Shown here: one piece after another, positions 35,329-36,221 of the stretch
Position numbering within the stretch: position 1 is the first letter of the stretch
How the letters are laid out: every line of letters starts with the position of its first letter
Assembly (NCBI GenBank): GCA_040005235.1
Contig: JBDTZG010000002.1
Span: forward strand, 64,001 to 128,000
Direction: 5' to 3'
DNA: 64,000 bases
DNA from: Acidobacteriota bacterium
GTDB taxonomy: Bacteria > Acidobacteriota > Thermoanaerobaculia > Multivoradales > UBA5704
The notes under the pieces: generated by a model
What the model saw: only the letters and a program-made list of their open reading frames with translations
Database searches by the model: none
Told to the model about the DNA's origin: nothing
Made by a program: the position numbers and the translations under genes

Positions 35329-35745
35329 TCAGGCCTCGGCGTTCACGGACTGCCCTTCACCGCCCTTGGCTTCCTGCTGTGCCATGGCCTCCGCCAGGGC
35401 CTTCGCGATGGTCTTCTTCGACGGACCTCTCTTGCGCCGCTCCACAGGCCGAATACCCAGCATCAACAGCTCCGGGTTCCTGCGCCCTAGAAAGGCTTGG
35501 AGGTGGGACTTCAAACGGATCGCATCCTCCCCGGTCTTCTCGACGAGGTTTCGCCGCTGGATGGTCAGGGTGTGGGCCTGGCCTTCCAGCTCCTGAATCC
35601 GGTCCGCCATTCTGACGATTTCAACGGTCGCGGCCTTGATTTCGCCATGAAGCTCCTGGGCTGCCGGCACTTGGCCGATCAACGGCTCCGCGTTGGCGCA
35701 CAGGGTGACCCACCGCTGGGTCCTTTCCGCAAATGAGTTGGGCAT
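35329..35745 (-). CDS. Hypothetical 138-aa helical protein with basic C-terminal patch
   Basis: [22 protein letters not shown]...[34 protein letters not shown]. Confidence 0.8.
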
Positions 35746-35802
35746 TACGCCCTCCTTTCGAGAACGTGCGGCCCGGAATGGGCTCGCACGAGTGAAACCG
35801 AG

Positions 35803-36092
35803 ATTCCTACGCCGCGAACCCGTTTCCCCGTACAGGGATGACGATTCCTCCAGAGAGGATCGCTTTGCCCTACGCCGGGAACCGTTTCCCGGCGGCGAGA
35901 TAACGGTGCCCCTTGCGGGGATTGGCTTGCCCTGCTCGGGGTAATGGATTCCCCATACAGGGAAAGCATTTCCCTCTACGGGGCAGACGGTCCCGCTTGA
36001 GGTTAGCCGTTGCCCTCTGCGGGGAAACGCTTGCCCTGACCCAGGTGAACGTCTCCTCAGATAGGTCGACGTTTCCCTATTCAGGGCGAAGT
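35803..36092. repeat. Degenerate tandem array of 14 mini-palindromic units, period 21 (three units of 20)
   Basis: Units start at 35803, 35824, 35845, 35866, 35886, 35907, 35928, 35949, 35970, 35990, 36011, 36032, 36053 and 36073; consensus T[T/G]CCC-N6-GGGA[A/T]-N5. Confidence 0.85.
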
Positions 36093-36191
36093 TTCGCCGA
36101 CTTCTTTGGTGGCCTATTGTCATATCAATCTCGTATATGGCGTTCGTTCTTTCCCTCAAGCCATCTTTCGTGGCTCCGAACTCTGATTTCA

Positions 36192-36221
36192 AGTCTGAAT
36201 CAAGAATGCCTGTCAAGTCAA
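36192..36221 (-). promoter_or_regulatory. Candidate sigma70 promoter reading into the array
   Basis: TTGACT-18 nt-CAGACT on the minus strand (overlapping TTGACA also present), AT-rich context. Confidence 0.4.

Follow-up and report, generated by a model that had tools for sequence, protein, structure and literature searches.

The 64-kb window analysed here, i.e. the whole stretch from position 64,001 to 128,000 of contig JBDTZG010000002.1 (Acidobacteriota assembly GCA_040005235.1), carries on its minus strand the gene of a protein of 138 amino acids (aa), in the following designated A1, whose leader contains a tandem array of short inverted repeats. A1 belongs to a massively expanded orphan family restricted to one lineage, to which about 100 arrays per genome, strictly phased at 21 bp, are coupled. 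Coordinates given without a contig name are positions within the window, and the order of features is that read on the minus strand. In this order a promoter-like element is followed by about 100 nt of unique leader, the array, the sequence GGTTTCAC, a hairpin, the Shine-Dalgarno (SD) sequence AAGGAGG, the ATG (35745) with the 138 codons it opens and, finally, a terminator-like hairpin (Table 1).

The array and its adjoining gene

A sequence-only reading of the window had described 14 consecutive mini-palindromes at 35803-36092, with conserved arms and variable loops and linkers, as well as a hairpin, an SD sequence and an open reading frame (ORF) of 138 codons behind them. All of these features are indeed present. 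We parsed the array as 14 head-to-tail units of 19-22 bp (period about 20.7 bp) with the consensus TTCCC-N6-GGGAA-N5, in which the arms, about 11 bp apart from centre to centre, are conserved while the 6-nt spacers and the 5-nt linkers vary. Its autocorrelation peaks at lags of 20/21 (0.45), 41/42 (0.47) and 62/63 (0.52), compared to 0.15-0.30 elsewhere. The summed statistic of the three peaks amounts to 1.448 as against a shuffle mean of 0.818 (standard deviation 0.042; z=14.9) and is reached by none of 2000 dinucleotide shuffles, so that the shuffled control suggested along with the sequence-only reading does not reproduce the 21-bp periodicity. Within the window the array tops all 290-bp segments in this statistic. 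The next-highest values (about 1.17 vs 1.45) belong to segments starting at 15501, 17901 and 18151 (about 15500-18400), which may represent a coding repeat. Tandem Repeats Finder does not report the array since its units are too divergent (only about 65% alike), and the strict pattern TTSCC-N6-GGSAA matches one unit only.

The ortholog of a sister species (locus L035; 86% protein identity) is preceded by 15 exact 21-bp units which have retained the TTCCC/GGGAA arms, whereas spacers, linkers and flanks differ from those of the window array. The L035 array additionally shows a 63-bp superperiod, which points to a recent three-unit amplification, and a metagenome contig of a relative likewise goes back by 63 bp inside its array. 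From these 63-bp steps together with the arms kept between the orthologs we conclude that the arrays turn over quickly while their arms persist.

The array stretch is non-coding. A frame of 302 aa is open through it and, with 21 bp corresponding to seven codons, might be taken to encode a protein with a 7-residue repeat, yet we consider the translation of this frame hardly credible. The 138-aa ORF has a G+C content of.65/.45/.79 at its three codon positions, whereas the 302-aa frame, in its upstream part, has.54/.59/.58 and hence no coding pattern. Furthermore, a reading frame is not maintained across units of 19, 20 and 22 bp, an argument which the sequence-only reading had correctly put forward in its own terms. 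The strong SD and ATG which are conserved among the paralogs start the 138-aa protein, whose database homologues all measure 106-169 aa, and at 66% GC open frames are common by chance. The same reading was right in setting the array apart from CRISPR arrays. In the latter, copies of one and the same 23-50 bp repeat alternate with unique spacers about as long, cas genes being usually in the vicinity, whereas the present units comprise 19-22 bp with 5-6 variable bases between the arms, and Pfam detects no Cas domains in the flanking ORFs. A search of Rfam produced no match at the gathering score and two chance-level sub-threshold matches at E<=1 (mir-2545 and VEGF IRES).

The hairpin of the proximal leader is kept in all 12 leaders of the subfamily alignment, where two of its pairs are altered in both partners and several are of the G-U type. 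In an RNAalifold analysis of 35743-35815 together with the homologous leaders, the conserved sequence GGTTTC just upstream of this hairpin pairs with the AAGGAGG region in 12/12 cases, mostly via U-G pairs, and may constitute a fold which sequesters the SD. At the distal end of the leader, the candidate promoter at 36221-36192 fares unevenly: a strict sigma-70 scan finds no promoter, whereas a TTGAC(A/T)-N-..A..CT motif recurs 417-476 nt before the ATG in eight related loci, where it is located upstream of their arrays. This pattern is matched anywhere in 12 of 89 upstream regions, the eight at -417 to -476 being among these. A comparable gap of about 100 nt between the promoter-like element and the array exists in loci L021 and L037. 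The hairpin behind the stop codon is also found 3' of the homologues in L035, L040 and L042; a scan for terminator-like sites yielded a single one, which is within chance.

Table 1. Features of the A1 locus; positions refer to the 64-kb window.
Feature	Position	Strand	Basis and remarks
Gene of the 138-aa A1 protein	35329..35745	-	ORF list, coding GC signature, 13-paralog alignment, AlphaFold2 model
G+C-rich hairpin right after the stop codon, likely transcription terminator	35286..35316	-	read from the sequence; function presumed
Proximal leader	35746..35802	-	SD AAGGAGG 35751-35757, hairpin 35765-35790, conserved GGTTTCAC 35792-35799
Array of about 14 units, period about 20.7 bp	35803..36092	.	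autocorrelation, unit parse, shuffles; non-coding
Distal leader, non-repetitive, between promoter-like element and array	36093..36191	-	presumably transcribed
Promoter-like element TTGACT-N18-CAGACT	36192..36221	-	recurring motif in related loci
Left copy of a local direct repeat	34812..35284	.	right copy starts at 37368; membership in the system uncertain

The A1 protein, its family and the associated arrays

A1 is an orphan family. Pfam, NCBIfam, PHROGs and PADLOC offer no family for the 138-aa protein, and none of 13 paralogs reaches a Pfam or NCBIfam cut-off. Sub-threshold matches to SSO1393 WHD (20 bits; cut-off 26), a CRISPR ring nuclease (16 bits; cut-off 600) and LmuB (E 0.009) are mutually inconsistent and were treated as coiled-coil noise. 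The best hit of a sequence profile search against the PDB has an E-value of 0.15, Foldseek returns no match at E<=0.001 in the PDB and none in BFVD, and the ESM Atlas yields unnamed Acidobacteriota clusters only. One of the database homologues is labelled by its source as originating from a Thermoanaerobaculia bacterium. A search for related loci by means of single-protein patterns gave 280 pattern matches, none of which was confirmed. In the literature, considered at the level of listings and abstracts, we found no description of such arrays or of the A1 family, and the passages considered of the preprint 10.64898/2026.09.22.753630 mention neither of them. The proposal of an undescribed array next to an unknown helical protein with a basic tail is supported, and the arrays of the paralogs described below extend it.

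According to the alignment of 13 paralogs, the conserved features of the family are an N-terminal S-Y/F-A..K...W, an H.GF.NP.L..FG(I/V)R motif following a long helix, and a tail rich in R and K. AlphaFold2 supplied with this alignment yields a model with a predicted local distance difference test score (pLDDT) of 84.6 which is all-helical and devoid of any beta-strand, in line with the helical nature guessed from the sequence. It comprises helices 5-23, 27-86 (60 residues), 91-95 and 110-128, while residues 96-109 are predicted to be basic and disordered. When modelled as a homodimer, the protein adopts a symmetric antiparallel arrangement (ipSAE 0.74 vs 0.00 for the best control; 100% contact agreement among runs; pLDDT >=82). 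Among proteins of solved structure, 20 of 30 homodimers and one of 23 single chains attain this mark. The prediction supports a long antiparallel coiled-coil homodimer with basic tails. Its closest contacts (53-53, 67-39/43 and 36-71/75) put the dyad near residue 55, from which we infer that the two C-terminal motifs and tails would be situated at opposite ends of the rod.

The 6.2-Mb genome to which the window belongs harbours 27 A1-family ORFs as judged by a profile search, compared to 14 paralogs by tblastn. Within 700 nt upstream of the latter 14 (a fifteenth, weak tblastn match being outside this count), arrays with a period of 21 or 42 bp directly precede 11, the sequence of the unit being different each time. 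With a fixed score, a 21/42-bp array is present within 450 bp upstream of 16/27 A1 members as opposed to 76 of 4602 called genes, a total which includes the 27 members themselves. Among relatives, other genera included, 37 of 66 fetched homologue loci possess an upstream array. The check to which the sequence-only reading had pointed, namely whether homologues carry palindromic arrays of this period, thus turned out in favour of a system. In a closed genome of another genus (G014, locus L027) the array upstream of the homologue consists of 20-bp units. An ortholog in G003 (L036) shows no array within the 200 bp left before the contig breaks and was for this reason not counted as lacking one. 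Of nine multi-member array types obtained by k-mer clustering, five hold exactly one array which adjoins an A1 member.

A scan of the whole genome reveals 104 regions with 21/42-bp periodicity, and the best lag is exactly 21 in 93 of them. The arrays have a median length of 338 bp (about 16 units) and a GC content of 62% compared to 66% for the genome. A census of lags 12-35 under one criterion gives 62 regions at 21, 23 at 20 and one each at 12, 16 and 22. An A1-like match lies within 900 bp of 14 of the 104 arrays; 13 of these matches are intact genes and one is a fragment of 44 residues. This N-terminal fragment, located beside a 614-bp array (a100) at G000:C138:14355-16767, is likely a decayed copy. 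With respect to gene context, 20 arrays are convergent, 17 divergent and 32 tandem, so that intergenic contexts are approximately random, and 25 overlap gene calls; all of these counts, including the 25 "inside genes", are rough since the gene caller, a home-made one based on GC3, covers 85% of the genome. Clustering by shared 9-mers groups up to 17 arrays into a single type. The commonest unit type (GAGCTGGCCCAG...) is encountered at the contig ends C4:1-420, C78:1-254, C79:1-216, C124:18-215 and C127:13-308. Repeats in such positions probably break the assembly, and the array counts are therefore lower bounds. In each of four genomes of the genus this commonest type gives 43-79 pattern matches.

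The arrays follow the lineage range of the A1 protein. A1 members turn up in 23 of the 24 other genomes sampled from the taxonomic family concerned (f1), at 4-47 matches each, and in none of 16 genomes which belong to sister families within the order. Across the phylum, two of 201 sampled genomes contain it, one being the genome under study and the other giving one marginal match (E 9e-6). In samples of 400 kb, two f1 genomes of other genera exhibit nine and 12 regions of period 20-21, whereas three genomes of the same order which are devoid of A1 exhibit one, none and one, both of which look like coding coiled-coil.

A possible binding track and its rivals

For the function of the array the sequence-only reading had left two options, a transcribed string of RNA hairpins and a DNA track with all sites on the same face. 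The DNA track fits better; for the string of hairpins neither a strand nor a G·U nor a covariation signal was found. We propose, with the chances about evenly balanced on the sequence evidence, that the array is a same-face binding track for the adjacent protein which serves autoregulation and has counterparts at sites elsewhere. The TTCCC and GGGAA half-sites would be about one turn apart and, as they repeat every two helical turns, would all face the same side. The rod-shaped antiparallel dimer, presenting a C-terminal motif and a basic tail at each end, could then bind phased half-sites on double-stranded DNA and spread cooperatively so as to coat the track, the occupancy of which would throttle the protein's own synthesis. 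Autoregulation is suggested because the track sits between the promoter-like element and the ribosome-binding site. The approximately 27 paralogs, most of them with a track of their own and a different half-site sequence, would have diverged together with these tracks, and orphan tracks of the same types elsewhere in the chromosome would be further sites, bound in trans. That the protein is the binder, that it spreads cooperatively, that it regulates itself and that it acts in trans is what we infer from the pairing of genes with arrays, the type-specific units, the arms conserved in the ortholog, the co-occurrence of both partners, the fixed period and the lack of RNA marks.

A number of observations weigh against the binding track. 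Neither a DNA-binding fold nor a relative of known function is recognisable for the protein. No array is detectable at 11 of the 27 paralogs and at 29 of the 66 homologues, and, conversely, about 90 of the 104 arrays have no A1 member within 900 bp, arrays being roughly fourfold more numerous than genes. In the other three of the four genomes sharing the commonest array type, the nearest relatives of the protein adjacent to this type are 62-66% identical and lack arrays. Matching types could also stem from co-inheritance of gene and array by duplication, without any binding. Since a promoter-like motif is found upstream of the arrays, they are probably transcribed. Finally, complementarity of the inner stems is weakly in excess when pooled (557 vs 504 expected of 1591; z=3.2), a value obtained with a crude automatic geometry under which none of 56 arrays is individually significant.

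The last two points are shared by a model in which the array, as part of a leader of about 470 nt, acts as RNA, i.e. as a string of small hairpins which binds or titrates the protein, be it for translational autoregulation or as the scaffold of a ribonucleoprotein. Besides the motif at -417 to -476 in eight loci and the inner-stem excess, the conserved hairpin between array and SD, with its G-U and two compensated pairs, is in favour of this model. So is a 151-nt contig of an RNA library which covers part of the coding region (35525-35675), with the array outside it and carry-over of DNA possible. In addition, the array folds far better than its shuffles (-143.2 kcal/mol; z -6.2). The antisense strand, however, folds equally well (-143.4 kcal/mol; z -6.0), the minimum free energy fold is not a row of mini-hairpins, and among 13 A1-adjacent arrays the sense strand folds better in six and worse in seven. 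In 605 sense-strand hairpins from 56 arrays, whose stems were chosen by Watson-Crick count alone and hence by a strand-symmetric criterion, G·T appositions (58) show no excess over A·C (75; binomial p 0.17). The sequence-only reading had regarded compensatory changes from CCC/GGG to CCT/AGG in two units as a sign of selected pairing. This claim is not supported statistically: across 29 units of the window array and its ortholog, 84.8% of the arm cells are paired compared to 84.3% after shuffling, with 220 of 500 shuffles reaching the observed value, so that pairing is no more frequent than expected by chance and covariation is absent from the unit alignment. In the L035 array three CCT arms even face GGG, which would create C·A mismatches in three units of the sense RNA. 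The stems measure 3-5 bp only, in some array types a single base separates the arms, and orphan arrays in tandem gene contexts are antisense to their flanking genes (about four) approximately as often as co-directional (about five). Taken together, the absence of a strand bias, of a G-U excess and of covariation beyond the half-sites argues for arms of the DNA type. Such arms can be viewed as inverted half-sites under conservation which recur at intervals of two helical turns, as would befit a protein-binding track on one face. We regard an RNA function of the array as quite unlikely, with a slight doubt left by the pooled inner-stem excess.

The arrays might, alternatively, be a selfish or neutral, lineage-specific class of intergenic repeat which spreads by slippage or mobilisation in the manner of repetitive extragenic palindromes (REP) and bacterial interspersed mosaic elements (BIME), the gene being a RAYT-like partner or a frequent landing site and the array having no operator role. 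We deem this unlikely, albeit it would readily account for some 100 arrays most of which have no gene, for their nearly random intergenic contexts, for one unit type at up to 17 places with many at contig ends, and for copy number steps of 21 or 63 bp as seen in the ortholog superperiod and the metagenome contig. The gene-array cassette is, moreover, found on different sides of an AbiEii gene in two species, and direct repeats bracket the cassette of the window. Yet no domain of a nuclease, transposase or recombinase is present in the protein, neither target-site duplications nor terminal structures were identified, and a strict 21-bp period over unrelated units suggests a structural constraint rather than neutral slippage. 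A further point against this model is that orthologs retain the half-site arms although the remainder of the unit changes. Improbable, in our view, is the binding of the arrays by some other factor, e.g. a helix-turn-helix (HTH) or HTH-TPR regulator, with the small helical protein as a commonly regulated target. The short palindromes within the units are typical of sites for dimeric transcription factors, the small protein itself is without a known DNA-binding fold, and XRE-like HTH genes are located beside five paralogs, large HTH/zf-HC2-TPR-like genes beside four paralogs and 12 arrays. No regulator family consistently adjoins the arrays, however, the largest non-A1 cluster accounting for 12/104. 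A1 alone has a fixed geometry relative to the arrays and a matching phyletic range, and some 20 different regulators, one per A1 paralog, would be required.

If the binding-track reading is adopted, the system would work most like plasmid centromere/operator arrays with small autoregulated binders and like iterons, without being a member of either group. The former include the ParR-parC system of R1, the omega protein of pSM19035 with its 7-bp heptads and the SopB-sopC system of F with 43-bp repeats. In common with these, the A1 locus has short tandem repeats directly upstream of a small-protein gene which overlap the control region and are phased so that the sites share one helix face; for A1, coating in a cooperative manner and autoregulation are so far only proposed. 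It differs from them in being chromosomal, in the multiplicity of paralogs (about 27) and arrays (about 100) in a genome, and in the inverted repeat contained in each 21-bp unit. A partition adaptor of the ParR/ParG/omega type was rejected as no Pfam family with a ribbon-helix-helix or HTH fold is matched and the model contains no beta-strand, and no recurrent NTPase that might serve as a partition ATPase or actin-like partner appears among the clustered neighbours of the 27 paralogs. Iterons of theta-replicating plasmids are repeats of 17-22 bp with a period of about 22 bp, bound by winged-helix Rep initiators of about 30-40 kDa. The A1 arrays share with them the period of about two helical turns, the location next to the gene of the presumed binder and the existence of further arrays elsewhere; unlike iterons they occur as dozens of types in one chromosome. 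A Rep initiator is not indicated by any family match in Pfam, NCBIfam, PDB sequence or Foldseek searches.

Other known systems are less closely related in their layout. Proteins of the H-NS/Lsr2 type oligomerise via an N-terminal coiled coil and contact DNA via a C-terminal basic or AT-hook-like region. A1 resembles them in size (about 120-140 aa), in its coiled-coil part, in a short basic C-terminal region (e.g. KRGP) and in the proposed spreading, whereas its arrays are specific phased repeats of 62% GC instead of AT-rich tracts and its many paralogs have distinct presumed targets. Membership in the H-NS, MvaT, Lsr2 or Rok families was discarded on the basis of Pfam, PDB sequence and Foldseek searches, none of which gave a match. 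In Csr/Rsm sponge RNAs, GGA motifs are exposed in hairpin loops. Similar to CsrB/RsmZ, the arrays offer many short stem-loops about 20 nt apart which could titrate a small dimeric protein; such a sponge was nevertheless rejected given that Rfam yields no match, that the conserved GGG/CCC are in the arms and not in the loops, and that no strand bias exists. With REP/BIME-RAYT systems the arrays have in common that short palindromic repeats are clustered between genes, that several families coexist in a genome, each with a cognate gene, and that most copies are orphans (in part after PMC3333891, otherwise general background). They deviate from REP/BIME in forming long head-to-tail runs at a strict 21 bp in place of inverted REP pairs. 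As a RAYT candidate A1 was dismissed because it is a 14-kDa all-helical protein without an HUH/Y1 nuclease domain, and repeats in inverted orientation on either side of the gene, as in REP/BIME-RAYT, were likewise dismissed since the array is located upstream only, with a single terminator-like hairpin downstream.

A more far-reaching version of the binding-track reading, which we put forward tentatively and consider rather doubtful, is a chromosomal "address code" of one acidobacterial family. Dozens of paralogous rod-shaped coiled-coil dimers would serve as rulers spanning some two helical turns, each polymerising on its own type of 21-bp-phased track, and the roughly 100 tracks would become sequence-addressed nucleoprotein filaments which silence, insulate or bridge loci of the same type. 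This would amount to a mode of bacterial chromatin organisation without a described counterpart. Binding alone, if true, would already establish a new DNA-recognition family without a known fold relative and about 20-40 orthogonal protein/site pairs per genome, a natural model for the diversification of specificity. A bacterial genome with about 100 long binding arrays phased by two turns would furthermore bear on chromosome organisation and silencing in the absence of H-NS-type proteins. Should binding fail, one would still be left with a new class of intergenic repeats, confined to one lineage, whose exclusive 21-bp period needs explaining.

Neighbourhood of the locus and of other arrays

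In the window, Pfam identifies at 36458-37263 on the plus strand two overlapping genes, one of an Rv0078B-related antitoxin (E 2e-24) and one of a nucleotidyltransferase toxin of the AbiEii type (E 1e-10). This pair is located just upstream of the promoter-like element, and ORFs of HicB-like and CopG-like antitoxins follow downstream of the A1 gene (34328-34865). The sequence-only reading had placed the locus among toxin-antitoxin/defence genes. The link to these genes appears to be one of incidental neighbourhood; other A1 paralogs are not found in toxin-antitoxin contexts. At L035 of the sister species, AbiEii has its place on the opposite side of A1.

Direct repeats at 34812-35284 and 37368-37626, which consist of the segments D1 (170 nt, 91% identity) and D2 (64 nt, 95% identity), enclose the A1 gene together with its array and the Rv0078B/AbiEii pair. 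An 80-aa ORF at 35042-35284 repeats, in truncated form, the C-terminal part of the 180-aa ORF at 37457-37999, and a third repeat pair is present at 33500-33548 and 38144-38192.

Elsewhere in the genome, small DCoH-like genes (pterin-4a-carbinolamine dehydratase) are found 400-850 bp upstream of four A1 paralogs in the same orientation (C123:12249-12557, C52:8150-8506, C10:20614-20961 and C69:23440-23844), and also in L020. These loci mostly lack arrays. Two of the DCoH-like genes were tested and match the Pfam family Pterin_4a with E-values of 4e-9 and 4e-14.

Apart from A1, only two kinds of gene recur beside arrays, those of a large TPR-like protein (12 arrays) and those of a small secreted protein with Cys-rich repeats (eight arrays). 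The former are large helical/TPR-like proteins next to orphan arrays, some of them with an N-terminal HTH or a zf-HC2-like CxxC (examples are G000:C8:182354-184231, C18:145004-146971 and C111:118600-121783). The latter, likewise next to orphan arrays, are composed of Cys-rich "GCxIDPNGxC" repeats. TPR-like regulator and Cys-rich peptide look like a module of their own.

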